A stretch of 15,439 bases of DNA from an uncultured Nitrososphaerota archaeon (GTDB lineage: Archaea; Asgardarchaeota; Njordarchaeia; Njordarchaeales; Njordarchaeaceae), in the NCBI GenBank assembly GCA_964518475.1, contig CAZFGR010000032.1:1-15439 (forward strand), given 5' to 3'. Positions 1,016 to 15,439 of the stretch are shown here, piece after piece. Under the pieces are notes generated by a model that saw only the letters and a program-made list of their open reading frames with translations, had not been told where the DNA came from and searched no databases. Position 1 is the stretch's first letter, and every line of letters starts with the position of its first letter. Made by a program: the position numbers and the translations under genes.

Positions 1016-1825
1016 TTATTGTATTAGTTTCTTTAAGTCTTTGAGAAATTCTTTTAAAGGCTTTAGCCAGGGTGAGGGGTTCTGTAGGCTTTTCACAATA
1101 TCTTCTATTTTGTTATTGTTCTTCATTTTTTCATAATTAAATAGGTATCCTCTGGATTCTTCTCCTAATAATCTGGTCATTCCGTATCCTCTCGTTTTAT
1201 GGCCACCTAGTAAGATTCCATGTGTCATCCAGAGCTCAAGTATGTTAACAATGATTTTTAATGGTATTTTGTAAAGGTCTTCGGCGCCGCGATATAAGTG
1301 GAGGGGGTTATCATATATTAGTATTGCCCGGAATTTTACGCCGGGGCTCAGAGAATATACTTGAAATAGATATTTCTCATGTATTGTTCGGGTCTTTTTA
1401 TCTATCTTTATTCCTGGTTTTATGAAGAGGGCGTAATCACTTACTGGTTCTGCGTCAGTTAATTTTATTCTAGCTCGATAGAACTTCGAACCAAATAGGT
1501 TACATACAGGGCATCTCAATGCTAACTCATTAATCTCCTCTGAACTACCAGCTTTGTTTTCATGATCTCTCTCATGATCCTTTATGATTTCTTCACGATT
1601 TGGAAAATTAAGGCTTTTCATTAATAATTCAGCGTATTTTCTCAGAATACCTTTCAGTGTTGTTCTCGGAATTATTGGTTTATACTCGTTATTGATGCTT
1701 ACTTGGAATATTGGTAATGTGAGGTCTCCCTCAGCTCTTTCCCCACCCACGTGGAGTGGCCCCTCATTTACAAAGATTAGTTCCAGGTAAAGCCTTGACC
1801 TAAGATCGTAGATTAGTTCGATCAT
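1016..1825 (-). CDS. csm3: Cas7-group RAMP (Csm3-like)
   Basis: Motifs GPLHVGG, PIIPRTTLKGILR, CPVCNLFGS, G-loop LGGHKTRGYG. GAGGTGA SD upstream. Confidence 0.9.
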   Translation of the reverse strand: MIELIYDLRSRLYLELIFVNEGPLHVGGERAEGDLTLPIFQVSINNEYKPIIPRTTLKGILRKYAELLMKSLNFPNREEIIKDHERDHENKAGSSEEINELALRCPVCNLFGSKFYRARIKLTDAEPVSDYALFIKPGIKIDKKTRTIHEKYLFQVYSLSPGVKFRAILIYDNPLHLYRGAEDLYKIPLKIIVNILELWMTHGILLGGHKTRGYGMTRLLGEESRGYLFNYEKMKNNNKIEDIVKSLQNPSPWLKPLKEFLKDLKKLIQ

Positions 1826-1827
1826 TC

Positions 1828-3027
1828 TTATATCACCTCTTTCGTCGTAACTACTTTAAACCAGTTAAATCCAATCGAAGAAAGTTCGTCCAGACCCGTT
1901 AACTCAATAAATACTAGAGCTTGTTCTGGATCTGGGGAATGTACTTCATAGACATGAATACTACCGGGAGCTCCAGCATAGTACCTCGGAATTGGTCCAG
2001 AACCGTTAGAAGATGTGCCCCATCCGCTAATCTTCGTTAATGAACCCATGACGAATGGAACTTTCCCCTCGTTTGTTTGAACTTTTCTAATGTTTAGTTC
2101 TGCTTCCTGGATCGTTGATACGTGGTTTTTCAAATCCTGGGGAGGATATTTAATATTCTCGATATAAGGTCTAGAATTTTGTCCATCAATGATTTCTAAA
2201 GTAGGTGATAACGCTTTCAATACATACACGGACGATCTGGCAATTTCTTTGGCTCTTTCATCAATTTTCCTTTCGATTTCCTTTTCTTTAAGCTCCATAA
2301 TTGCCCTACCAAAGCCTCTGGAACGTCCCCTACCGAGGAATATTTCTAATTTATCGCCCGTATTCAATTTATCCATGAGTCTCCCTAATAGATCTGCTGG
2401 ATCAAATATAGTAGTAGTGAATTCTAGTCCAGCGGGCAGAAGTTCGTAGGAAAACAGCATTCCCTTCTCTGCAGTATAGTATTTCTTATTAATTGCTGTA
2501 CTTTCATGACGTGATGTATATATGTCCACCTTCTTGATTTTTCTGTTATGGAGAATGACCAGTTCGCCATGCAAGGATTTTGGATAACCTTCTCTCACGG
2601 GAGGAATACTTTTAGCGATTTCATCTATGCTTATTATGCTAGTCAATTCATCCACGGTAATTCCCACAAAAAGACTTTCTTCTCCCGTTTCTTTAATTTT
2701 CTTAACATACACAAATGGACTGGCGGGCTCCGCTTCTTTTCCATCAATAACTGGATACGCGGGGCGTATTCTTAATAATGGATTTATAATTTCATCAATT
2801 AATGCGTCACATTCCTCTCTTTTTCCTCTATTGGATAAACAAGATGCCTTTTTTATTCCGTATTTTATGCTTATTTCTCGTGCCAAACTATCTATTAGAG
2901 CCCCCTTAATACTCCTGGATGGAATATTCAGAGGCTTAGTTAATACTTCGAAGATATTCCTCCTATGTCTCCTTGTCAATATCGTAGGAGAACATAGCCT
3001 TATCTTAACCTCATATAGCTTAGGCAA
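1828..3027 (-). CDS. csx10: Cas5-group RAMP (Csx10/Csm4-like)
   Basis: Motifs LCSPTIL, IPSRSIKGAL, RIRPAYP, AEKGMLFSYE, G-loop LGRGRSRGFG, then a second RAMP-like half (LKALSP...APGS...IGFN). GGAGG SD upstream; 8-nt overlap with the preceding gene. Confidence 0.75.
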   Translation of the reverse strand: MPKLYEVKIRLCSPTILTRRHRRNIFEVLTKPLNIPSRSIKGALIDSLAREISIKYGIKKASCLSNRGKREECDALIDEIINPLLRIRPAYPVIDGKEAEPASPFVYVKKIKETGEESLFVGITVDELTSIISIDEIAKSIPPVREGYPKSLHGELVILHNRKIKKVDIYTSRHESTAINKKYYTAEKGMLFSYELLPAGLEFTTTIFDPADLLGRLMDKLNTGDKLEIFLGRGRSRGFGRAIMELKEKEIERKIDERAKEIARSSVYVLKALSPTLEIIDGQNSRPYIENIKYPPQDLKNHVSTIQEAELNIRKVQTNEGKVPFVMGSLTKISGWGTSSNGSGPIPRYYAGAPGSIHVYEVHSPDPEQALVFIELTGLDELSSIGFNWFKVVTTKEVI

Positions 3028-3664
3028 TAATACCCGCCTCCTTTAGAAGTTTTGACACGGAAGTATCGGGAATTTTTCCCTTGACACATTCGATCCTCTC
3101 TACCCTTAGTAATCCTCCCCTACCAAGTCCGTTATACGCTAATTCTAGAAGAGAAAGAAGAAGGAGATCTACTTCCTTTTCAGATAGTTCTAGAGCGTCT
3201 ATTTCAAAGCTTATTCTGGCGCGTATTGGTAAGTTTTCTTCTGTGAATAATGCACCTTCCTCCACTATGTTCTTTTTCCTGTTAATTCTGATGCGTGTCC
3301 TTCTAATAAGATGCATAGGTTCTATTCTTGCATCACTAACGATTATTTTCCCAGTAGTAGGTGCATTAGGGGCACCAAATAACTTAGAGACATCATCATT
3401 CTCACTACTAAGAACATCAGGTTTTATCTCTGGGACTGCGTAAAGATCAAGAATCCATGCTACTCTTATAGATGCTGACCTTAGGGCACCCTTTATTGTG
3501 CTTCCTGGAATAATTATTACATCACTAAAACGGCCGTTTGAATCGTAATACAATGTCCTGTAGAAGGGTACCTCAACACCAAATTCTACAGGCCGACCCA
3601 TACCCACCGTAAGTAAGTTAAGTGTCTCAGCGGTAACTCTTATCTTAAAAGAATAAGAATTCAT
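3020..3664 (-). CDS. csm3: Cas7-group RAMP (Csm3-like)
   Basis: Motifs LLTVGMG, IIPGSTIKGALR, KLFGAP, RIRINR..EEGALF, GLGRGG. ATGA overlap with the cas10 stop. Confidence 0.85.
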   Translation of the reverse strand: MNSYSFKIRVTAETLNLLTVGMGRPVEFGVEVPFYRTLYYDSNGRFSDVIIIPGSTIKGALRSASIRVAWILDLYAVPEIKPDVLSSENDDVSKLFGAPNAPTTGKIIVSDARIEPMHLIRRTRIRINRKKNIVEEGALFTEENLPIRARISFEIDALELSEKEVDLLLLSLLELAYNGLGRGGLLRVERIECVKGKIPDTSVSKLLKEAGIIA

Positions 3665-6384
3665 ATAGTTCCTCCTCCTAGTAGATCGATGAGGAAAATC
3701 ATATCAATAAGGGGTAAACATAATTTTGTCATGTCCTCAGACACGTCTCTGGCAACTTCTATAATCATTTCATAATATCTCTTGCCTTGCTGTACTCCCC
3801 TTCTAGCAGATTCTCTGAGAGTATATATTGCAGCCGTAGGAATAGATATCTCTCTATCAGTTTGTGCAACACTTAAAACCTTGAGAAGATGACGTCTAGG
3901 CTCCTTCAGGTTTTCTATACCTTCTCGTCTTTTGCGAGCATCAAAGTAAAACCTAACATACCTACGAATTAACTGCTTAATGCCCTCTATTCTCTCTCTA
4001 TAATTCTGTCCAAAAGTTATGTCAAATAATTTTTCTAAGAGATCGTATATTCTCGGTTTCCCGGAGAGAATATAAGGTTGGGCGCTAAGTCTTTCTTTAG
4101 AAATTTTTTGAAGGAATGTTCTTGCTGATTCGCTCGTAAATACTAATGACTTAGATACTAGGAAAGCTAGAGCACCACCAGATCCGAATTTTCTGCCACG
4201 ATCTTTCGCCGTGTTGAGGAGGCTCATGGCAGTTTCTATTAATGACCAAATAGGAGCCTTGGGTTTTCCCGCAATAATTCCTAAAGAGAGAGTGGGCGAG
4301 AGCTTTTGGTGGTAGCCAAGTTCCTTATGGAATGTCTCCATCACTATTAGTGCAAATGGTAGCGAAATATATGCAGGGAGAATAATAAATATGTCATCCC
4401 CGCCCATAAAGATTGTTCCTAGATATACTCTTTCGATCCATTCTCTGGCATCCATAGAATTACCAAGTACGGTTTCGAGCTCTTTCTTAATGATATCTGA
4501 TGCTACTGTGTAAGCTTTTTTCATGGCTAGATCGATACGGTAGCTTCTCTCGACGAGATCAGCCAACGAACTAGCTATACCCATGTAATAACCCATTAAA
4601 TTACCATCAGATTTTATAACAGCTAAGTCGAGATACTCCTCTATCTCACCTTTCTCAAGCTCCTCTATGCTGTGTCCAGCTATATATTCCATAATATATA
4701 ATCTTAGAATATTCTTCCAAAGTGATTCATTTTTTTCTAATGACAATAATTTGCTCCTAAATGTAAACAATCTCCCAAATTGTCGCTTTGCTAAACAATA
4801 TATGCATAATCGATCCTCATCCTCTCCTACAACATCTACATCGACTGCTGGATATTCTTTACAAGAATCGCATACGTAAGCTATAGGGGGAAGATCCAGA
4901 GAGGTTCTATTCCTAGTTCCAATGAGATATTTCTTCGCATTGATTTTTTGTTCGAGTTCTACGAAACTCTTCTTTATGTCAACTTTAAGTGTTGTGCGTT
5001 CCATAACATAGCCCAGAGGCTTATAGATAACACTACTGTCGAATACCTCCTTAATGGCTTCAGCAACTTTAGAATAAACTCTTTCAGGAATCAGTAAAGT
5101 TAGATTCCCACCCGCAGAATAAAGGATACATTCCATAGGAACTTCCTTTTCCGCAATAGCCATAGGTATATCATACATTACCAATAAATCAACTAATAAG
5201 CTACCGCCAGAAATCTCTGGTATCCTAGAGCCGCTGAAAATAAAATTCTGTATCTCCCGAGTATCTATCTTTACCAAACTTACTCCAGTAATCTCCTCAG
5301 ATTCAGTATCTTTTGAGCCTTTTTCTATTAATTCGCCCTTACTCATTATTTCAACGAATTTTTCTATAAGTTTTGAGTAGAGATCAGCTATCTTCTCGAT
5401 ACTCCCCAGTTCTCTTAAGAGATCCTCAAATGCCTCCCATTCTTTAATGCCTTTTATCCAATCTATAATAATCTGCTTTATATTATCGGGAATATCGGGA
5501 AGCTTTTCCATAAGCAGTTCAATATTCTGAGATAGCTCATCAATTCCGCTGATTATCTTGTCAGCTTGAGTAATGTATGCAGCAACCTTAGTGGGTTTCT
5601 GTTCATGATGATTCAATATTATCTCAACAATTCTGTTTAATGTTTCTTCGCTAAGAACATTTTCAAAGACGCTTTTGAATATTTCTGCTGATTTCTCAGC
5701 ATATCGTTTCCAATCAATAGGCTTTCCAATATCATGAAAAAGAGCTGCAAGCCTTATCATATCAGCCTCTTCCGTATTTCCATCGTTACTTGCAAGAGAC
5801 CATGCAAGCGCAGACGTGGTTAATAGATGAACCACTAATGAAGAAGTATTGAGAAGTGGTCTCGGGTCAGCGGGAGTATCGAAAAATATTTTCCTTACCA
5901 ACTCCATTACATCGCGATCTCTTATCCTGGCTATAGAGGGGAGCTCCTTTTCAGTCATTTTTCTATTCAATTCTATAAGCTTGTTAAATAAGGCGAGAGT
6001 TCTATCTTGAATCTCCTCCCTATCATATTTGTAGAGATTTATCTTAAACGGTATACCTCTCGCTCTATTAATGATTCCCAAGATTAACATATACCCCGGC
6101 GATTCTATCAATGGTTTCGCATCTTCTATCGAAGGAGGAATAATCATTGGTGTCTTGAAGAGCAAAGTAATAATATCGGCAAACACTCTAATCTTCTTTT
6201 TCTCATCCACGTCTCCTAATAATTTATTCAACTCCGTTACAACGTCTCTAAGAAGACTAATAAAACGTTCCCAGGCGTTCTTCAACTCCTCAACAGTTTG
6301 TACCTTCACAAATGTGGGTCTGTCCTTATTTTCATCATATATTGGTAAAAGATATCCTCTTATAACATATTGCAATAATACCAC
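3661..6384 (-). CDS. cas10: Cas10 large subunit with HD domain, Zn finger and intact Palm cyclase motif
   Basis: PADPR..SLVVH, LFHDIGK, NHHE, ADKIISG (HD domain); KIDTREIQNFIF and YSAGGN (Palm1); CDSC..CIYC; KSDGNLMG and FMGGDDIF (Palm2). The real start is probably TTG at 6375, 6 nt after a GAGGTG SD. Confidence 0.95.
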   Translation of the reverse strand: MVLLQYVIRGYLLPIYDENKDRPTFVKVQTVEELKNAWERFISLLRDVVTELNKLLGDVDEKKKIRVFADIITLLFKTPMIIPPSIEDAKPLIESPGYMLILGIINRARGIPFKINLYKYDREEIQDRTLALFNKLIELNRKMTEKELPSIARIRDRDVMELVRKIFFDTPADPRPLLNTSSLVVHLLTTSALAWSLASNDGNTEEADMIRLAALFHDIGKPIDWKRYAEKSAEIFKSVFENVLSEETLNRIVEIILNHHEQKPTKVAAYITQADKIISGIDELSQNIELLMEKLPDIPDNIKQIIIDWIKGIKEWEAFEDLLRELGSIEKIADLYSKLIEKFVEIMSKGELIEKGSKDTESEEITGVSLVKIDTREIQNFIFSGSRIPEISGGSLLVDLLVMYDIPMAIAEKEVPMECILYSAGGNLTLLIPERVYSKVAEAIKEVFDSSVIYKPLGYVMERTTLKVDIKKSFVELEQKINAKKYLIGTRNRTSLDLPPIAYVCDSCKEYPAVDVDVVGEDEDRLCIYCLAKRQFGRLFTFRSKLLSLEKNESLWKNILRLYIMEYIAGHSIEELEKGEIEEYLDLAVIKSDGNLMGYYMGIASSLADLVERSYRIDLAMKKAYTVASDIIKKELETVLGNSMDAREWIERVYLGTIFMGGDDIFIILPAYISLPFALIVMETFHKELGYHQKLSPTLSLGIIAGKPKAPIWSLIETAMSLLNTAKDRGRKFGSGGALAFLVSKSLVFTSESARTFLQKISKERLSAQPYILSGKPRIYDLLEKLFDITFGQNYRERIEGIKQLIRRYVRFYFDARKRREGIENLKEPRRHLLKVLSVAQTDREISIPTAAIYTLRESARRGVQQGKRYYEMIIEVARDVSEDMTKLCLPLIDMIFLIDLLGGGTI

Positions 6385-6385
6385 C

Positions 6386-6691
6386 TCAAAGCTCAGAAGA
6401 TAATCTTACGGGTTTTCCAGCCTTCATTGGGAAGAAATGAGGGTGCAGAAGAATGTCCTGAATACATCTAACATTATACGAGTACGTACCGTCAGAATTC
6501 CTATACCAGGAGATCTCTTTGAACTCTTTATCTTCTCTCTTATAAGCGAATCCCATATAGCCGGGGAGCATTTCTGGATGAAAATTCTTTAGGATAGTAG
6601 GTGCAAGAAACTTATTGTAAATTATGAATAATTGATAATCCCTTAACATTCTAAGTAATTCATCTTTACCGACATTAGGCAAGGCGATCAA
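6386..6691 (-). CDS. Small type III-D accessory subunit, possibly a short Csx19-like protein
   Basis: Fills the gap between a Cas7 gene (overlapping) and cas10 (1-nt gap). The beta-rich GFAY...EISWYR..GTY segment loosely resembles Csx19. The start may be TTG at 6682. Confidence 0.55.
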   Translation of the reverse strand: MIALPNVGKDELLRMLRDYQLFIIYNKFLAPTILKNFHPEMLPGYMGFAYKREDKEFKEISWYRNSDGTYSYNVRCIQDILLHPHFFPMKAGKPVRLSSEL

Positions 6692-7595
6692 CCCTCTCTA
6701 CTTCATCAAAGTTTGTCCTCAAATAGTCCTTAAACTTAAGCTCAGCATGACTAATCATTTCTTTAACAAAGTCCTTAGGAGACTTCGATAATTTCTGCGT
6801 AGCTTCATCCGCGAAAATTAGTTGAATATCTTCAAGCTCAAACAACAATCTACCAAACTTCAATTCATTATTTCTCGCATCCCTCAGTTTCCTGAATTTA
6901 AATCGTCCAATTAAAATTGGTTTATTCTCCCCTAGTCTAAGACCAATAAAGAGTAATCCTAATTGATACTTTTCTAAATTTCGAAAGCTTATTTTACCAT
7001 GAAAGATACTTCCAGGCTTTACCGCCATAACTTTTTGGCCAGTAATTAACTCTATCTTCTCTAGATTTTCCGCATTTCCTTCAAGTATAAAATTAGAGAT
7101 ATCAACAAGAGATCCGAGTCCTGGAGCTCCGAATATGTCACAGATTTCACATACCCGTCCAGATGATAGATAATCACACGGCCGCTTTACTTCCCTAACC
7201 ACATCCCCCCAAATTAACAAGTATCTCTGAGGTATTTCCTCTACACGATAAACCCTAAAGCAGGCGGGACATGCTTTATTCACGGATTTAAAAAGAAGCT
7301 CGAGTCTAGTCCTTAATGCACCCTTAATAGAGGATCCGTGAATAACTATATTACCAGCTAAGGATTGAAAGGCTTCAAAATCGAAGCTGAGTTCATGAAT
7401 GAACTCTCTTAGCTTTTCAATATTTGTTTCCTTCTTTAGTGCCTCTAATTTATTTCTGTCAAAAAGAAGGGTCTTTCGCCCAGTTCCTACAAATAGATAT
7501 GAATCCTGAGGAACGAGTGCCTTTAAACGTATTATGCCAGTAATTGGTTTGATAACATCACGTGGAGTCGGTTCTCTAGTCAGAACTCTAATCAT
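6675..7595 (-). CDS. Cas7-group RAMP with insertion (Csm3/Csm5-like, Zn-binding)
   Basis: YLFVGTG, then a ~35-aa insertion, IHGSSIKGALR, CPAC..C..CEICDIFGAPG, and IGRFKFR..KFG G-loop variant. ATGA overlap with the upstream gene. Confidence 0.85.
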   Translation of the reverse strand: MIRVLTREPTPRDVIKPITGIIRLKALVPQDSYLFVGTGRKTLLFDRNKLEALKKETNIEKLREFIHELSFDFEAFQSLAGNIVIHGSSIKGALRTRLELLFKSVNKACPACFRVYRVEEIPQRYLLIWGDVVREVKRPCDYLSSGRVCEICDIFGAPGLGSLVDISNFILEGNAENLEKIELITGQKVMAVKPGSIFHGKISFRNLEKYQLGLLFIGLRLGENKPILIGRFKFRKLRDARNNELKFGRLLFELEDIQLIFADEATQKLSKSPKDFVKEMISHAELKFKDYLRTNFDEVERVDRLA

Positions 7596-8464
7596 TTTCC
7601 TCCGCCACTCTTAACTTTAGCGACATAATTCTCCCAAGCCTTCTTGACAGCGTTTAGAAAATCCCGTATTTGCTGAGGTGAAGAAATAGTCCCCGATACA
7701 TTGAGGCCTATTTCTGTATCATTTTCATCCAGTGCTACTAATTTACCATTGACAATTCCCATAGGCCCATTAATCACTATCTTGTTAATATTAATATTAA
7801 CGGCTCCAAAACCACGTGATTTGAATCCCCCAATCTTGACAATTCCCGCATTTATATAATCAATTACATGACTAATCAACCCAAGCGCGTAGTTAGGCAA
7901 ATTAGTTGCTGTGAGCATAAAACCGAAACGTGCCCCTGGCTCTACGTACTCCACATTATACAGCGCTCTTGGCACAACCGCACCTGTTCTTCTATTAATG
8001 GCAATCCCTGTTTTTACTGAAAGCTTAAATGGTCCCTGAACATAAGCATCGTAGAAATCTACGTGTGATTTATAACTTGCAGACCCGAATATTTTGCAAA
8101 TTATGCAAAAACTATTTACTATCTCTATCAGTTTTCCCCTATTATTCTCTTTCATCGCTCTTTCAAGATCTTTTTTCCTGAGACCCCCACAAATCTTAGT
8201 AGGAGATATCTCACAAACAGGGATAGTATGTATTCTAGCAATACTCTCAGCAGTGCTTCTGAAAACACCTTTCAGGCTTGACCCAGGGATGTAAGGCTCT
8301 ACTTTCCCATTTCTAATAATTGTTAATACCTTCAGATCTGTTAATGCCGTAGGATCCAGCGTTTTTCCTCTACCTATTCTAATGGGTTCCTTATTAACTA
8401 TTTCCCCTACAATCATAATATCCCTAAATATGGTGTCATGAACTACCCACTCAACCATTTTCAC
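7592..8464 (-). CDS. csm3: Cas7-group RAMP (Csm3-like backbone subunit)
   Basis: EPIRIGRG..TDLKVL, PYIPGSSLKGVFRS, C..C..CIICKIFGS, GIAINRRTG, IGGFKSRGFG. Likely start is ATG at 8458. Confidence 0.92.
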   Translation of the reverse strand: MKMVEWVVHDTIFRDIMIVGEIVNKEPIRIGRGKTLDPTALTDLKVLTIIRNGKVEPYIPGSSLKGVFRSTAESIARIHTIPVCEISPTKICGGLRKKDLERAMKENNRGKLIEIVNSFCIICKIFGSASYKSHVDFYDAYVQGPFKLSVKTGIAINRRTGAVVPRALYNVEYVEPGARFGFMLTATNLPNYALGLISHVIDYINAGIVKIGGFKSRGFGAVNININKIVINGPMGIVNGKLVALDENDTEIGLNVSGTISSPQQIRDFLNAVKKAWENYVAKVKSGGGK

Positions 8465-8468
8465 ACCC

Positions 8469-9158
8469 TTATAACTCCTTTCTACTCACTTCTTTAAGCT
8501 CTCCATCTTGGAGAACACATCGTCTTATAACTCCTCTCCTCAGTCTTACTAATCCTGCTCCAATAGTTTTTCGACCTCCAATCTGTAGTCCGTGATCCTT
8601 CAGTGTCTTAATAAGTTTATTAAGGATCTTTGACCGATCATCATTCTCATTATCTAAGTCGATATTGATAATCATCATTCTAAAGCGAAAAACTGTACCA
8701 GGAGCTATAAACTCCTCCATGAACAAGCCTTGGTAGTGTACTGATCCAAGTGTCCTATTGATCCTTATTCCCGGCTTAATGAAAGTCTCTACTGGCACGT
8801 TATCTGCTGGATAAGCATCAAAACAAATAACATGCCCTGCCAATTCCTGAGACCCAAATATTCCGTTCAACAATTCATCAATATTAGAATTGCTCAATTT
8901 ACCTGACTGTAATAATGACTTACCAATAAGTTCACATGTAGCCCTAAAAACACCTTTCAAGCTCGACCCAGGGATATATGGTTCACTCACTAATTGACCA
9001 TTCTTAAAACGCTTAATTCTTAAAACGGGATTATCCACTAAATCGAACTTAGCTTGATCCCTCCCACTACTAATTCTGATAGGAGTCTCAGCTACCAATT
9101 CTCCCTCAATCTCAAATAATACCTTAAGCTCATCAAAATCTTCATACTTGCTATTCAC
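8469..9158 (-). CDS. csm3: Cas7-group RAMP (Csm3-like)
   Basis: ETPIRISSG..VDNPVLR, PYIPGSSLKGVFRA, IFGSQ, IGGRKTIGAG. GTG start with AGGTGA SD. Confidence 0.9.
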   Translation of the reverse strand: MNSKYEDFDELKVLFEIEGELVAETPIRISSGRDQAKFDLVDNPVLRIKRFKNGQLVSEPYIPGSSLKGVFRATCELIGKSLLQSGKLSNSNIDELLNGIFGSQELAGHVICFDAYPADNVPVETFIKPGIRINRTLGSVHYQGLFMEEFIAPGTVFRFRMMIINIDLDNENDDRSKILNKLIKTLKDHGLQIGGRKTIGAGLVRLRRGVIRRCVLQDGELKEVSRKEL

Positions 9159-9863: not shown

Positions 9864-11542
9864 ATGTACGAACAAAATAAAATAAGTGAAATCATAAAGG
9901 AGGTAATAAATAAATTTATTGAGCAGGTATCAGAGGATCCAGAAGGCGTAATAAAAAAATGTTGGAAGAAGATTGGGTAGGATTCTGTGCTGTGTCTGGA
10001 GAGAATAAAAACTACTTATCAATGATCCCTACGATTATTAACACCCTTTTCAAGAATTCGAAAGTAGTAGATAAAGAAATACGTGATGCCTTAGTTGACG
10101 AAAAACTTAGATCATCTTCTGACGAAATTGATGAAACAATGGAGAAGATAAGAAACATAGAAGAAATGGTTCTTGCTTGCAAATTTTTTAATCTAAGTGA
10201 ATTAGCAAGCAATGCTCTAATGAAATTATGTCAGACTATTTGTAAAAAATTAGAAAGTGTCGCCCGATTAGTTTTCATGAAATATAGAAAAAATGAAGAG
10301 GATATTAATCCTTACGAGCATTTTCGAGCATTAATATTGTCACGATTCGAAATTATACAAAAAGTTTTAGAACTTCTAGATGAAAAAGAGCTAGACAAGA
10401 TAGAGTACTACATTAGGCTTTATAGAAGATATCTGTATTTAGCAAGGAGCATGGCATATAATATAATTATGCATCACAATGAGATGCCAACTAATAGGGT
10501 ATTTCCAATATTTAAACTATATCCAAGTTGGCTAGAGGACATTCTCGATGGTTCGGACAATTCTACAGAAGGTATTTCTACAGATTCAGAAGATCGTCTT
10601 AAAATTTTGTATTTCATAGAGCATTATCTACCTAAGAATCTCCTCGAATTAATTACGGAGATAGTTCCAGTAGAAAGTTTAGAAAATAAATTAATATTAA
10701 TAGAATATACCTTGCAAGAGATGAAATGTAAGTTAAGCAATTCTATTAATAAATTGAGCGAATTCATAATTGGAAAGATCACTTTAAACGAAATCAATAC
10801 TAAAATTAAAGACTATTTATTGTTATTTCTAGAAGAAGAGAAGCTACTAAGAATAAAGAATAGGTTGATAAAAACTATAGCAGAAGCTATTATAGTTGGG
10901 ATAGTGCTTACTTTTGTAAAATTATTTAAGGAGATAGATGCGAAAAATAAGGTAAAATATCCAGTAAGATACTTAGAAAATTTCTTGCGTAAAATAATTA
11001 TCGATAAACACTTAGTTGAAATCCTTTATAACTATATGTTAGAACGACAAGGTTGTGCAGTTGCATATAACAGTTATCTAGGCCTGCTAGAAATAGATGA
11101 CAATAATAACTTTCAACTAAATCTTAAAGAAATAAATGAGATCGACTTAGTTGTATTCCGACCCGAAAAAATCGTTGAGATAATTGAGTTATCTAAAAGC
11201 AGAGATGTTCACAATTATGTAAAGGAGAAATTAAATAGATTAGGAGATATATATTCCTTTGTCTGGAAAATCCTAATGATGTGTGATCAAGTTTCACGAA
11301 TGCCATTTTCAGATTTTCTGATAAGCTTTAAAATAACTAATGGAAAGCACTCTGAATCAGATCTAAATTTAGTTAGAGAAGAATTAACATATAGGATACA
11401 TGGATCTAAAGAAGAATTAGCCATACCTGTATTGATACGAGCACAGCATAGAGTTATAAATTTTAGAAAGACCGCAATAGAAAAAGACATTTCAATAACT
11501 GATCTCTCCAATCTTTTTAATCAAGTTAATGTAAAGGAATAG
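9864..11542 (+). CDS. Uncharacterised CRISPR-associated protein: helical N-terminal region with degenerate HEPN-like motif, C-terminal PD-(D/E)XK-like nuclease domain; apparent -1 frameshift at A7 (9953-9959)
   Basis: Main ORF is 9959..11542 (527 aa). An upstream ATG at 9864 with a GGGAG SD reads MYEQNKISEIIKEVINKFIEQVSEDPEGVIKK up to the A7 run. Motifs: KHLVEILYNYML..AVAYN..NEIDLVVF..IIELSK (nuclease-like) and KLESVAR...YNIIMHH (HEPN-like). Confidence 0.6.
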
Positions 11543-11653
11543 AAACATTTCTTACTGAGAGAGAAATCAAACCATTTTGAGAAAAATGGATTTCCATACT
11601 AAAAAACTCATCTTATTGAAGCAAATAGCAAATAGACTTAGACATTACGAGTA

Positions 11654-12886
11654 TTATAATAAGACTGTTTCTTTTTCTCTTATTCGAGACTTCCAATAGA
11701 GTTGCAGTGATATTGTTGAGGGGCCTTGAGCTATTACCAATGGTTTATCGGCTTGTTCTAAAACACTATCAATGATTTTTTCTGCTATTATTGCATCTGT
11801 CGATGGTATTGGGTAGTAATTAACTTCTAATTCATTAACTGCTTTTATGCACATAATCTTTTTCCGCATCCATTCATCTAATAGTCTTGGCAGGAGAGAA
11901 TTTGGTGTATACAGTACATGGAACTTTTTAACATTTAGTAACTCGCTTAGAAGAAGTAATTGTGCAGTACTCCATTGGCCAGTCGCTATTGTTACGATTT
12001 CTTCACAAGCACTAAACTCTTTATTTCTTAGAGTATTAGCTATTAGCCAGAGCCTTCCGATAAGAGACTCCACCCTGATCCCAAGTAACTCTTTTATATT
12101 TTTAGTGACCTCCTCGATCCACTCTACGAAGAAGTCCCTATATTGAGGCACTAAACGTTGCCTAAGGAAATTTTCTAGAGAGGTCTTCTCTTCCTTAGGG
12201 GCGGGAATATGTACTGCTAGATGTCTCAGTTCTGCTTCGAGAGGCTCCATTAACTTGTTTAGTCGCTCCCTATACCAAGAATACGTATCAAATACCACTA
12301 ATTTAGCCATTTCCTCTAGTTTCTCCTCCACACTTAGCGCAGTTTCACTTTGTTGCTTGAAAAGAAGATACATCAACAATACAATGTTTTGAAAGAATAT
12401 TTGTCTTAGCTCCAATCCTCTCCTAGTAGCTGCTGTCAATAGAGACAGTAAAGTTAGCGTCGCTGACAACTCTATGAAATCCTGAGATAACTTTCCTTCA
12501 GCGTCTTCTATACTAATCTCCACCATAGCTTTTTCTGGAATAGATGTGAGTAGCAGGGGAGTCTTTAATTTCCTATGAATCGCTCCTAAGACTCTCGGAT
12601 CGGTATGTTCTTCTTCGGTTACCTTTGTACTGAGAATAAATGTGTAATTTGTTATTGGTGAGCTTGAGATTAGATGTAGGAGTTGAATGGCGCGAAGTTG
12701 ACCCATAGATGAGTTCTCCGTGTATATCATGAACTCTGATGCCAAAGTAATTAAGTCCGCTATGATTTCTGGTAACTGACCCCTCTTACCCGATATAAAT
12801 AGTATCTTAGGCAGTTCTGGGATAAAATGTCCAGCAAAGATTTTCCAGTTAGATACGTTTACTTTTATGTCCCATTTAATCGTCAT
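11654..12886 (-). CDS. Uncharacterised protein with C-terminal CARF-like domain
   Basis: Long ORF; the ORF track starts it at 12901, but the likely start is ATG at 12886 after GTGGGG, overlapping the upstream stop. The last ~115 aa, IVTIATGQWSTAQLLLL..KKFHVLYTPNS..VNYYPI..D..PLVIAQGPSTISLQLY, follow the CARF beta/alpha pattern. Confidence 0.65.
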   Translation of the reverse strand: MTIKWDIKVNVSNWKIFAGHFIPELPKILFISGKRGQLPEIIADLITLASEFMIYTENSSMGQLRAIQLLHLISSSPITNYTFILSTKVTEEEHTDPRVLGAIHRKLKTPLLLTSIPEKAMVEISIEDAEGKLSQDFIELSATLTLLSLLTAATRRGLELRQIFFQNIVLLMYLLFKQQSETALSVEEKLEEMAKLVVFDTYSWYRERLNKLMEPLEAELRHLAVHIPAPKEEKTSLENFLRQRLVPQYRDFFVEWIEEVTKNIKELLGIRVESLIGRLWLIANTLRNKEFSACEEIVTIATGQWSTAQLLLLSELLNVKKFHVLYTPNSLLPRLLDEWMRKKIMCIKAVNELEVNYYPIPSTDAIIAEKIIDSVLEQADKPLVIAQGPSTISLQLYWKSRIREKETVLL

Positions 12887-13979
12887 TATCAAACCCCACA
12901 ATAGACACTTTCAATGCTAAGATTTTCCAGAATTCCTTGTCATAGTTTTTCAGATCCCTAAGGTACCTCCCTTTGGCCTCTATCCTTCGCTTACTTTGCG
13001 TGCTTTTTACGTATATGTAGAAAGTTTCTGGAATTACGAGTATCCTAAATTCTTTCTCTAGAAGCGTAGCTAGAAGCTCCTTGTTCCAATCCTGCATAAG
13101 AATGAATATTATTTCACTCTTTTCATTTTTCGAGATACTCCCTATGAGATCATTAAAGTCTCTTTGGTATACATTAATACTAGTTGGCAACTGCTCTCTA
13201 AGACTGCACTCAAGATCGGAGATCTCGCGAGGGAATCTCTGCCTTAGATCCCTGTTCGTAACTAATATAACATCCCTTAACATCGTTTTAGAAATGCTCA
13301 AGAGTTTACTATACAACAGACCTATACTCTGAGCTATAGCCTCTACTCTATAACCTCCCAAGCCAAGCTGAGGAAGAATAGCCCACACCTTCGCAGTAGC
13401 AAGAACCTTCTTTAGGAGAGACTCCCTCTGCTGAATTAAGTTCTCAATCAAATCTTTATACTTATTCCAGCCCTCTTCCATAAATTTAATGAATAATTCG
13501 AGAAAATCTAGCGAATCACCTAATTCGCAACCCTTGCCAACTCTTATAAAATCCTCTCTCAGGGAATTCCTATATTCTTTCGCAATGAATAATAGTGAAT
13601 AGAAGAAAAGATTCATCATTTCAGGGAAAAACTCGTAAAGTTGTTCAACATTTCCACGAAACTTTTTCGTTGATGCCTCTCTAAAACGATATATTCTCAG
13701 ACGCCTAGAAAGAGAATTTAGCCTGTTCTCATCCCCCCACCATACAGTCAGAGGAGTATTAACGCTTACAAGCTGCCTTATCGGAACCTTAGACCACTCC
13801 TCCCTATAGACATCCTTACTAGGTTTTTCCAACAGGAATATGCCCCCAATAGGATCATCCATAATTAGCAATCCATCAGCCTCAAATATAGCATCCGTGA
13901 ACAAATAAGCAAGATCAACATCAAACACATTAAGCGAGAACTCTATCTTCCTAAATCTAGGATCATAAGGAAACCCCAT
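12876..13979 (-). CDS. Uncharacterised protein with probable degenerate CARF/Rossmann-like C-terminal domain
   Basis: 367-aa ORF with a strong GGTGGTGA SD. The segment VWAILPQLG..helix..RDVILVTNRD..EIIFILMQDWNKELLATLL..RILVIPE has the CARF-like strand/helix order. The ORF is secure; the domain call is weak. Confidence 0.55.
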   Translation of the reverse strand: MGFPYDPRFRKIEFSLNVFDVDLAYLFTDAIFEADGLLIMDDPIGGIFLLEKPSKDVYREEWSKVPIRQLVSVNTPLTVWWGDENRLNSLSRRLRIYRFREASTKKFRGNVEQLYEFFPEMMNLFFYSLLFIAKEYRNSLREDFIRVGKGCELGDSLDFLELFIKFMEEGWNKYKDLIENLIQQRESLLKKVLATAKVWAILPQLGLGGYRVEAIAQSIGLLYSKLLSISKTMLRDVILVTNRDLRQRFPREISDLECSLREQLPTSINVYQRDFNDLIGSISKNEKSEIIFILMQDWNKELLATLLEKEFRILVIPETFYIYVKSTQSKRRIEAKGRYLRDLKNYDKEFWKILALKVSIVGFDNDD

Positions 13980-14212
13980 TAACCAGTCACCACCCCCAAT
14001 ACCAGTAAAACAATAAGAAAGAACAAAATTAAATAATTAATCGAGAAAAAAGACCTAAAAATAACACAAAATTATTAAATATTTTTTAACCATTGTCCCA
14101 ATTATATAAACTTTTTGAACATAATTTTAGACTTCTCCTCGTAGTTTTTCTTTTTGGCTTTTTTTCACGCATCACAGGATCCATAAGACCTAAATCTTAT
14201 AATTATTCACTA

Positions 14213-14259
14213 GGCACCAGAGGAATTCCCTAGATCCCCCAGAAAAGATAGTAAGAAAG
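14213..14259 (+). repeat. Highly decayed CRISPR repeat relic, inverted relative to the other repeats
   Basis: CTAGATCCCCCAGAAAAGATAGTAAGAAAG (14230-14259) compared with the repeat's CTAGACTCCCAGACAAGGGAATTGAAAG. It sits at nearly the same distance from the L2 stop (47 nt) as the 15324 repeat does from the R2 stop (52 nt). Confidence 0.4.
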
Positions 14260-14287
14260 AACGTCGCCACTCACCAAAACGTCATTG

Positions 14288-14306
14288 AGGGAAAGAAGAA
14301 AAGAGA
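14288..14306 (-). terminator. Pyrimidine/T-rich archaeal terminator-like tract after L2
   Basis: The minus strand reads TCTCTTTTCTTCTTTCCCT directly after the stop codon. Confidence 0.4.
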
Positions 14307-14483
14307 CTAGGCGTCTTCGTGAGGGAATACATTAACGATCAAGTATGCGTAAAAACTCACTATTGCTGCAGCAATTATTAGACCAAGAACTATCAATTTA
14401 TACGGAGTCATCGTCCATAGTATTGTTCCTAGGATAATACCGTAAATACCAAATATTATGGCCAATTTATCAAGCTTATCCAT
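14307..14483 (-). CDS. Small two-TM membrane protein L2 (58 aa), not in the ORF track
   Basis: MDKLDKLAIIFGIYGIILGTILWTMTPYKLIVLGLIIAAAIVSFYAYLIVNVFPHEDA. GGTGA SD overlaps the upstream TGA. Aligns without gaps to R2 (P..I..GLI..A.I......L...V). Confidence 0.75.
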   Translation of the reverse strand: MDKLDKLAIIFGIYGIILGTILWTMTPYKLIVLGLIIAAAIVSFYAYLIVNVFPHEDA

Positions 14484-14490
14484 TAGAAGA

Positions 14491-14692
14491 TCACCGTCTC
14501 TTCAACTCTCCTTTAAACATCATATATAAAAATATGATTGCTACCATTAATAAACCTCCCGCAATTCCAAAAAAATGGAAGTGCTAAGATCGCATTCAAT
14601 ACTCTATCTATTCCGAAAGTGACAGAGATTGCAACAGCAAGAATTGTTCCTCCCAAAATTATTGCCAGAGCAGTATTAACATAGTCGATCAT
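14491..14692 (-). pseudogene. Small two-TM membrane protein L1 (66 aa when corrected), frameshifted at a T7 run
   Basis: Removing one base from the A7 at 14569-14575 gives MIDYVNTALAIILGGTILAVAISVTFGIDRVLNAILALPFFGIAGGLLMVAIIFLYMMFKGELKRR*. This aligns with R1 on both sides of the shift and ends at the TGA embedded in the SD of L2. TATA-like TTATATAAA at ~14729-14737. Confidence 0.7.
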
Positions 14693-14811
14693 TTCTAACC
14701 TTCTGTCTGTTAAAGTTTCATATAATAGTTTATATAATGAAGTCAACCAGCACAAAAATGGCTCCATAAGATACCTGATCCCAAATACTATTAACGAGAG
14801 AGAATACCATT

Positions 14812-14923
14812 CCTTCAATTCCCTCGTTTTGGAGTCTAGTTCTGGCTCGTATTCGTTGGGGACTATACTTCAAAAAGTGATGAGATCTTTCAATTCTCTT
14901 GTCTGGGAGTCTATTATTGATTC
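14812..14923 (-). CRISPR. Degenerate repeat-spacer-repeat unit (trailer end of array 2, or a mini-array)
   Basis: Repeat 14812-14848 has 4 mismatches to repeat 1-37. The spacer at 14849-14886 is 38 nt. Repeat 14887-14923 has 6 mismatches, 5 of them in its last 10 nt. Confidence 0.85.
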
Positions 14924-15097
14924 CTCGCTATTATTCTAGGCTTCTCGCTTATATTGGCTACTCTGTCATTAGCGATTCCAAGTTTTGATTCTGTTGTGCA
15001 AGGTATTCTTGCATTACCGTTTTTAGGTCTGGGAATTGCTTTAATACTAACCGTTGCATTATTTATATATTGGGTAATAAAAGAAAGGTTAGGGTGA
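14921..15097 (+). pseudogene. Small two-TM membrane protein R1, paralog of L1, lacking its start (5' end abuts the repeat)
   Basis: FLAIILGFSLILATLSLAIPSFDSVVQGILALPFLGLGIALILTVALFIYWVIKERLG*; about 23 identities over 57 aa to corrected L1 by hand alignment. In-frame TGA at 14918-14920 and no ATG. Confidence 0.7.
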
Positions 15098-15103
15098 GAT
15101 GGT

Positions 15104-15271
15104 ATGAGTAAATGGTTAGTAGCGTTTGTCATTATTTTCATAATCGCTTTAGTATACGGCATACAAACATTACCGATCAACATCATATTAACTGGCCTGA
15201 TTTTGTTAGCAATAATTAATGCAATTGCAGTAATCTTAGTGGAGAAAGTAGGAATGAGAGACGAATACTAG
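15104..15271 (+). CDS. Small two-TM membrane protein R2 (55 aa), not in the ORF track
   Basis: MSKWLVAFVIIFIIALVYGIQTLPINIILTGLILLAIINAIAVILVEKVGMRDEY. GGTGA SD at 15093-15097 overlaps the R1 stop. Confidence 0.75.
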   Translation: MSKWLVAFVIIFIIALVYGIQTLPINIILTGLILLAIINAIAVILVEKVGMRDEY

Positions 15272-15291
15272 CTTTTTTCTCTTCTTTTTCT
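15272..15291 (+). terminator. T-rich archaeal terminator-like tract after R2
   Basis: CTTTTTTCTCTTCTTTTTCT immediately after the stop codon. Confidence 0.5.
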
Positions 15292-15323
15292 CGGTGATTA
15301 TTTATGAGTGAAAATGATATTCT

Positions 15324-15438
15324 CTTTCAATTCCCTTGTCTGGGAGACTCCTATTGGCTCGTCCGTGATTACGAAGTACATCTCGCCAGCTTCTAACTCG
15401 TCTTTCAATTCCCTTGTCTGGGAGACTCCTATTGGCTC
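15324..15438 (-). CRISPR. CRISPR array 2 (continues beyond the right edge)
   Basis: Two identical 37-nt repeats CTTTCAATTCCCTTGTCTGGGAGACTCCTATTGGCTC (15324-15360 and 15402-15438) with a 41-nt spacer at 15361-15401. Confidence 0.93.
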
Positions 15439-15439
15439 G

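Follow-up and report, generated by a model that had tools for sequence, protein, structure and literature searches.

Probable mobile-element gene fragments, one of them a pseudo-spacer, at the oldest end of a CRISPR array adjoining type III cas genes in a Njordarchaeales archaeon

The stretch of DNA analyzed in this work (the window, 15,439 nt) corresponds to positions 1-15439 of C32, a 17,052-bp scaffold (CAZFGR010000032.1) in the 2.33-Mb metagenome-assembled genome (MAG) of an uncultured archaeon of the Njordarchaeales. The minus strand of this scaffold carries a type III CRISPR-Cas locus, identified by a 907-aa Cas10 with HD and Cas10 palm2 domains and by six RAMP proteins, all encoded at 1016-9158. 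Three open reading frames of 527 aa (plus strand), 415 aa (minus strand), and 367 aa (minus strand) follow at 9959-13979, and none of them has a match in Pfam or NCBIfam. The GC content drops to 29-32% at 10-12 kb of the window. The main CRISPR array begins at 15323/15324 and runs past the window to C32:15576, next to a leader at about 15577-15700 that resembles the one at C32:38-132; near-identical leaders and CRISPR repeats are thus present near both ends of the scaffold, which also contains a 100-N gap within the array. The position of the leader implies that the crRNA of this array is read from the minus strand and that position 15324 is its oldest end. An Rfam search of the region around and beyond this end (13900-15439) returned nothing.

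Beyond the oldest end, a degenerate mini-array of two repeats and one spacer is flanked by two fragments, referred to here as L and R, both of which are directed outward from it. Each fragment holds parts of the last three genes of a five-gene module that encodes a coiled-coil protein (g1), the protein g2, a membrane protein (g3), a small membrane protein (g4), and a P-loop NTPase (g5). The following features were assigned, where C118 is a contig of the same MAG and L019 and L020 are metagenome contigs:

14207-14306, minus strand: distal part of L, with the T-rich g4-g5 intergenic stretch and a decayed g5 start (DNA alignment to C118)
14307-14483, minus strand: L2, an open 58-aa frame, g4 homologue with two hydrophobic segments (open reading frame, 43% identity to the g4 of L020, hydropathy)
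14491-14810, minus strand: g3 remnant of L ("L1"), 5'-truncated, beginning near residue 75 and running to the gene end, interrupted by a +1 frameshift (two-frame translation, alignment, profile)
14811-14849, minus strand: terminal degenerate CRISPR repeat of the variant B type (repeat comparison)
14850-14885, minus strand: old spacer, the sole one of the mini-array, without match
14886-14923, minus strand: degenerate CRISPR repeat, nearest to the variants of contigs C35 and C45 (repeat comparison)
14924-15097, plus strand: g3 remnant of R ("R1"), 5'-truncated, from about residue 105, with the stop codon TGA at 15095-15097 and without a start codon (alignment, profile E value of 2.7e-13)
15104-15271, plus strand: R2, an open 55-aa frame, g4 homologue with two hydrophobic segments (open reading frame, hydropathy, family alignment)
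15272-15323, plus strand: end of R, with the conserved T-rich intergenic stretch, a Shine-Dalgarno site, and the first 20 nt of g5 (DNA identity to L019 and L020)
15324-15439, minus strand: trailer end of the CRISPR array, with 37-nt repeats of variant A (repeat and leader comparison)

The two mini-array repeats (14811-14849 and about 14886-14923) share 77% and 82% identity with the repeat of the adjacent array and are closer to the repeat variants that occur at C32:1-37 and terminally on C35 and C45, to which both are 91-97% identical. The spacer between them had zero matches within the genome and the related loci that were fetched. Read in the sense of transcription, the array and its last repeat are followed by R (14924-15323), one degenerate repeat, the 36-nt spacer, the terminal degenerate repeat, and finally L (14810 to about 14207), and the mini-array is continuous with a host array that possesses a leader and adjoins type III cas genes. 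R is a 400-bp segment that lies flush between two repeats of different variants (about 14887-14923 and 15324-15360). L begins flush after the terminal degenerate repeat and is bordered by a repeat on this side only, none being present at its distal end. A further repeat-associated arrangement was seen at C45:600-760 (L006), where a T-rich motif and an inverted leader-type TATA motif precede a lone repeat in what looks like a rearranged array end. The T-rich motif at that site (C45:676-714) resembles that of the g4-g5 intergenic stretch in 22 of 23 nt, but was dismissed as a relative because it is of low complexity and similar matches occur genome-wide.

The original prediction described L and R as inverted paralogous two-gene units around a degenerate mini-array, and this description is borne out by the strands, the two repeat copies, and the profile matches: in a six-frame search, a profile built exclusively from outside homologues detected L with an E value of 8e-17 and R with one of 2.7e-13. 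The GGTGA Shine-Dalgarno sequence reported to overlap the stop codon of the upstream gene is present in both fragments, and the T-rich tail noted after both cassettes was also found. This tail forms part of the g4-g5 intergenic stretch, since in both cases it is followed by another GGTGA and by the beginning of g5. The identity of L1 and R1, previously put at about 40%, was measured as approximately 40-45% at the protein level, and the DNA of L and R is not alignable. The gapless alignment claimed for L2 and R2 could not be reproduced: the two proteins share 32% identity over 31 aa with one gap and a weak E value of 0.09, and their relationship is seen in that both fit the alignment of the g4 family. 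The prediction of four small genes for membrane proteins with two helices holds for half of them. L2 and R2 each have an open frame, a Shine-Dalgarno site, and two hydrophobic segments, whereas L1 and R1 are broken.

In L, the first gene had been proposed to start at 14692. Translation from this ATG runs into an in-frame stop codon at 14513, and the C-terminal part that resembles R1 lies in another frame, which is reached by skipping one T in a run of seven (A7 on the plus strand, 14569-14575). Upstream, the frame remains open up to 14818, inside the repeat, and the family alignment identifies the proposed initiator Met as an internal residue of the longer g3 gene. Transcriptional slippage at the T7 run might restore the L1 frame at a low level; there is no support for its use. 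L2 is related to the g4 protein of L020 with an E value of 8e-05. Downstream of it, L contains a g5 remnant with a GTG at 14274-14272 and about 21 codons that include stop codons, and this distal DNA aligns to C118:1402-1500 with a local score of 58, as compared to 25 +/- 3 for shuffled sequences. A candidate decayed CRISPR repeat 3' of L2 was rejected, because its alignment with the repeat variants did not score above shuffles and the stretch aligns to the g5 start of C118 instead. Candidate g5 remnants past 14207 were equally discarded, being nonsignificant at the protein level, with a colinear 34-nt DNA match (14140-14107) that falls within the range of shuffles.

In R, the first gene had been placed at 14921, but the frame merely opens there, right after a TGA inside the repeat; it has no start codon, the earliest possible one being a TTG at 14954. 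The g5 remnant of R consists of an ATG at 15304 and 17 further nucleotides, after which the array repeat cuts in flush. In its last approximately 50 nt, R shares about 94% identity with L019 and 92% with L020 (over 49 nt), and the 31 nt adjacent to the repeat are identical to L019 without exception (31/31). L019 is a contig of sequencing run X1, whose sample probably also yielded the window; this contig overlaps the MAG contig C98 at 100% identity and has a depth of 64 in X1 as compared to 20 for the window contig, an approximately 3-fold difference. Comparison with L019 makes the right junction of R exact, whereas the left junction can be placed within about 3 nt by protein alignment. A source was seen at the DNA level solely for these last approximately 50 nt of R and about 100 nt of L; the remainder shows protein homology at 35-55%, and no close relatives of L or R were found in the data searched. 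Given the limited protein identity between L and R, the lack of alignable DNA, and an R end that is near-identical to a present-day element, the two fragments would represent independent captures rather than an inverted duplication.

Such a juxtaposition of host, element, and array sequences might be generated by an assembly chimera in which these parts were joined at shared repeats. The 100-N gap in the C32 array, the segment 15218-15285 linking R2 to the array, which no independent contig of the Logan collection bridges, and the T-rich motif at 15274-15296, which recurs elsewhere in the genome, are compatible with this explanation. However, a 4.4-kb Logan contig of run X1 covers 14100-15217 without any difference, including the T7 run, although this run, as the probable source sample, is not independent. 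Run X2, from another study, is identical over 14259-14506 and 14627-14923, which leaves the T7 site uncovered, and run X3 contains a single synonymous change in L2. Moreover, there is no sequence common to element and repeat at 15323/15324 by which an assembler could be misled, and equivalent junctions are present in the independent assemblies L009, L020, L024, and L034. An artefact is therefore considered extremely improbable.

The g3/g4 family is real, rare, and unannotated, and forms part of a mobile element. The MAG contig C118 holds the module in intact form, with g1 (84 aa), g2 (107 aa), a 226-aa membrane protein in which g3 and g4 share one frame, and the start of g5. Relatives of the module are present on the metagenome contigs L020, L021/L027, and L028, and a long g5 (at least 270 aa or reaching the contig end) was found on L021/L027, L028, and L019. 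A second copy of g1, 75% identical, is located at the extreme end of another MAG contig (C20:29516-29739); its homology begins at the same point as in C118, it is preceded by a 200-aa open reading frame of chromosomal look (28707-29309), and it may be a further integrated or partial copy. The module was found in only 6 matches among 1.84 billion representative proteins and in 2 in a search of 5.8 billion clusters. The homologue search called for by the original prediction thus yielded rare relatives, some of them at CRISPR repeats, whereas the g3/g4 family was not detected in six other genomes of the genus or in 400 genomes of the phylum, and single-protein and profile searches of IMG/VR returned no g5 relatives. 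Searches of Pfam, NCBIfam, PHROGs, and PDB sequences provided no family for g1 to g4 and only generic P-loop matches for g5, for which an AF2 model had a mean pLDDT of 53. No usable look-alike of g3-g4 was found in the ESM Atlas. Small proteins of the g3/g4 type with two hydrophobic helices have a general likeness to the major capsid proteins of spindle-shaped viruses (SSV1 VP1, His1 VP21), which may be regarded as a lead, as PHROG, Pfam, and PDB searches gave nothing usable in this respect.

Information on the element is available from L017, a 13.6-kb contig with g1, g2, a full-length g5, an integrase fragment, a PAPS reductase, and many membrane or secreted-type ORFans, of which the first 4.8 kb are colinear with the MAG contig C52. 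A related provirus is present on contig JAUQYT020000079.1 of Ca. Njordarchaeum guaymaensis, near an EF-1alpha gene fragment at the contig end. In these elements g1, g2, and g5 reside beside membrane and secreted proteins, an integrase, and a PAPS reductase, which is the context shared with the module of this work. The g3-g4 pair, however, is absent from L017, the provirus, and L026, and unrelated small membrane genes occupy its place in L019 and L035. This variation indicates that g3-g4 sit in a hypervariable membrane-protein slot of a mobile element. These data point to an undescribed family of integrase-bearing Njordarchaeales elements with a hypervariable slot for small membrane proteins upstream of a P-loop NTPase. 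Apart from the integrase, the PAPS reductase, and generic P-loop domains, this family has no Pfam or PHROG assignment and could not be linked to any virus family described so far; PMC13700489, in its available text, names one Njordarchaeales-associated virus, a 24-kb adnavirus. Several MAG contigs (C52, C118, C98, which is the one overlapping L019, and C74) together with L017 and L018 appear to be pieces of a virus- or plasmid-like element of about 14 kb, whose genes encode an integrase, a PAPS reductase, a P-loop NTPase carrying an HTH at its C-terminus, and ORFans of the membrane and secreted types; the family as such is unannotated.

Clear links emerge between this module and CRISPR repeats at other loci. 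Cut copies adjoin repeats in at least three further metagenomic loci (L009/L029/L034, L020, and L024), all of which were recovered with module-gene queries, so that an apparent hot spot may reflect ascertainment bias. In L009-L012, L029, and L034, a lone repeat is located two bases after the cas6 stop codon and is followed by a g1 gene truncated near codon 12. The downstream genes g2, g3, and g4 are retained in L009 and its copies (L010, L012, and L029), where two inverted repeats enclosing one spacer interrupt g5 near codon 108; the g2, g3, and g4 genes next to cas6 are intact in several samples. This copy, from a related organism, extends over 1.6 kb (g1'-g2-g3-g4-g5', L009:9441-11160) from the lone repeat on the cas6 side to the inverted repeat pair. 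L034 has the same left junction as L009 but a g3 allele of the L020 type, which suggests that the captured copy later recombined with other elements. In L020 (1142-1250), a direct repeat array interrupts g5 near codon 97, and in L024 (483-592), g3 is truncated near codon 70 and comes after a repeat-spacer-repeat unit. L024 and L020 are near-identical over 375 nt of DNA, and their CRISPR repeats belong to different families. Where a relative without the interruption is available for comparison, the junctions are flush at single-base precision, as seen for the right end of R and for L009 in comparison with L019 and for L024 in comparison with L020, and the cut points within g3 and g5 differ at every locus. 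Tandem repeats of another kind, in L024:1-108 (54-nt units) and at C17:23974-24103, lie within apparent coiled-coil coding regions and are unrelated to CRISPR.

This recurrence is one of the arguments for the functional reading of the original prediction, according to which g3 and g4 form a CRISPR-linked membrane heteropair kept beside arrays as accessory effectors, such as a pore, an abortive-infection unit, or a type III signalling partner. In its milder variant, g4 alone would be retained in the form of L2 and R2, for example as a superinfection-exclusion protein. The module indeed adjoins CRISPR repeats in five loci, both L2 and R2 have remained intact and keep their Shine-Dalgarno sites, the L009-type locus retains g2, g3, and g4 by cas6 in several samples, and C118 fuses g3 and g4 into a single frame. 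The state of the genes speaks against it: L1 is frameshifted, R1 is startless, and the truncations coincide exactly with the repeats. Intact g3-g4 copies occur solely within the element module with a full-length NTPase, and contigs with a full-length g5 are those where no repeat was found. The slot is filled with other genes in L019 and L035 and lacks the pair in L017 and L026, which is at odds with a conserved partnership, as is the fact that these queries did not detect the pair in six congeners and 400 phylum genomes, where a conserved co-occurrence with cas genes or arrays would have been expected. The soluble CARF-like pair postulated next door also lacks support, as the 367-aa and 415-aa neighbors match neither CARF nor any other family and a search of the six congeners did not detect the 367-aa one. 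Both variants taken together are thus considered very unlikely, and what remains of the proposed CRISPR linkage is that it is recurrent (L and R in the window, L009/L034, L020, and L024), in the form of truncated fragments at repeats and not of conserved accessory genes. A tempting false lead, that of a new CRISPR-linked membrane toxin pair, is removed in this way.

Mini-CRISPR arrays are also carried by viruses of the Sulfolobales. By analogy, the element itself may have carried a one-spacer array, and repeat-to-repeat recombination would have inserted element DNA into the host array, followed by erosion. Units of two repeats and one spacer next to module genes, comparable to those virus-borne arrays, are present in the window (14811-14923), in L024 (483-592), and in L009 (11053-11160). 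In contrast to the virus-borne arrays, no repeats were detected on contigs with a full-length g5 or on longer element contigs: L017, L021, L026, L027, and L028 were found to be free of CRISPR-like repeats, although these element genomes are incomplete. The repeat core also has no exact match in IMG/VR, the mini-array of the window is continuous with the host array, and the junction points in g3 and g5 vary by locus, which is in better agreement with independent cuts than with one inherited junction. This scenario is therefore regarded as distinctly unlikely, if somewhat less so than the heteropair.

The explanation we consider probable is that L and R are decaying gene fragments of a mobile, virus- or plasmid-like element embedded at the oldest end of the array, with R being a pseudo-spacer. 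Among the options listed in the original prediction, that of captured viral genes is hence the best reading, on account of the homology to the module and the element context. Each fragment comprises the 3' part of g3, g4, and the first codons of g5 of one element module. After capture, erosion would have led to the frameshift, the lost start codon, and the stop codons in the g5 remnant, and most likely the fragments yield no functional membrane proteins in the host. A counterpoint is that L2 and R2 are still open with Shine-Dalgarno sites, which would be uncommon for fully neutral AT-rich DNA.

The closest precedent is the SiL-E1 pseudo-spacer, a piece of mobile-element DNA between two repeats of CRISPR_2 in Sulfolobus islandicus LAL14/1 (Jaubert et al. 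2013, PMC3718332). This insert of about 2 kb is flanked by identical repeats and shares 82% DNA identity with pING1-like plasmids, and its authors proposed two scenarios for its capture, namely, faulty processing of a protospacer and recombination with pre-existing spacers (PMC3718332). The present case adds an example that is older, recurrent, and from another lineage. Like SiL-E1, it consists of gene-bearing DNA between repeats that is colinear with its source and joined to the repeats without any extra bases, and additional spacer-repeat units come after it. For R, the order and orientation g3'-g4-g5' are those of C118, L020, and L028, a colinearity that is mostly at the protein level and extends to DNA only at the g5 end; both junctions are flush within the precision given above; and one spacer and a repeat follow on the trailer side (14811-14885), while the array continues on the leader side. 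L alone, with its one-sided repeat, does not have the length between two repeats that defines a pseudo-spacer. Unlike SiL-E1, R is 400 bp long, old, and decayed, is enclosed by two different repeat variants, and matches element DNA solely over its last approximately 50 nt; in addition, a second, inverted fragment (L) is located past the terminal repeat, and the same module recurs at the repeats of other loci. A literature search retrieved SiL-E1 as the sole earlier case, and the fragments of this work are thus a second natural example of gene-sized pseudo-spacers, here recurrent and in an Asgard-related lineage.

Two routes of capture may be envisaged. The adaptation machinery would integrate an untrimmed, PAM-delimited long prespacer, or, alternatively, the element would recombine with matching spacers or repeats. 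At the protospacer of R, the flank in the element is TCA in L019 and TCG in L020. The sole other spacer-protospacer pair found in the MAG (C82:57-95 and C39:6774-6812, 37 of 39 nt identical) is flanked by TCC; C39, which encodes large proteins of the secreted type and has an integrase-like gene, may be another binned mobile element or a self-target. A TCN-type PAM is a possible interpretation of these two cases. In a test for two pre-existing spacers, the left end of R showed no TCN-type flank at the distance predicted for an older spacer, which is weak evidence, and none of the 12 assembled spacers of a few arrays match the module. The combination of flush junctions, the TCN-type flank, and the perfect 31-nt match makes the capture mechanism testable, in that integration of a long prespacer can be set against spacer-primed recombination.

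R could still be of use to the host. Pre-crRNA would run antisense through R, and Cas6 cleavage in the repeat at 15324-15360 would generate a guide RNA that is predicted to begin with the 8-nt handle ATTGAAAG and to continue into sequence antisense to the g5 start. The first 31 nt of this guide would pair with the start region of the g5 mRNA of the element. Given that the repeat-proximal 31 nt are identical to the co-assembled element and antisense to the start of the NTPase gene, R may continue to function like any other spacer and serve the type III system of this contig. A bolder proposal, which we judge rather unlikely, is that gene-sized (0.4-2 kb) pieces of one element family, delimited by a PAM, enter Njordarchaeales arrays time and again, by "ruler-less" acquisition or by spacer-primed recombination, to lie flush between repeats, and that the resulting pseudo-spacers stay active. 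If so, pseudo-spacers would serve as guide templates, as exemplified by the match of R to a co-resident element, and as recombination partners of incoming elements, as exemplified by L009 and L034, which share the left junction but differ in their g2-g3 alleles.
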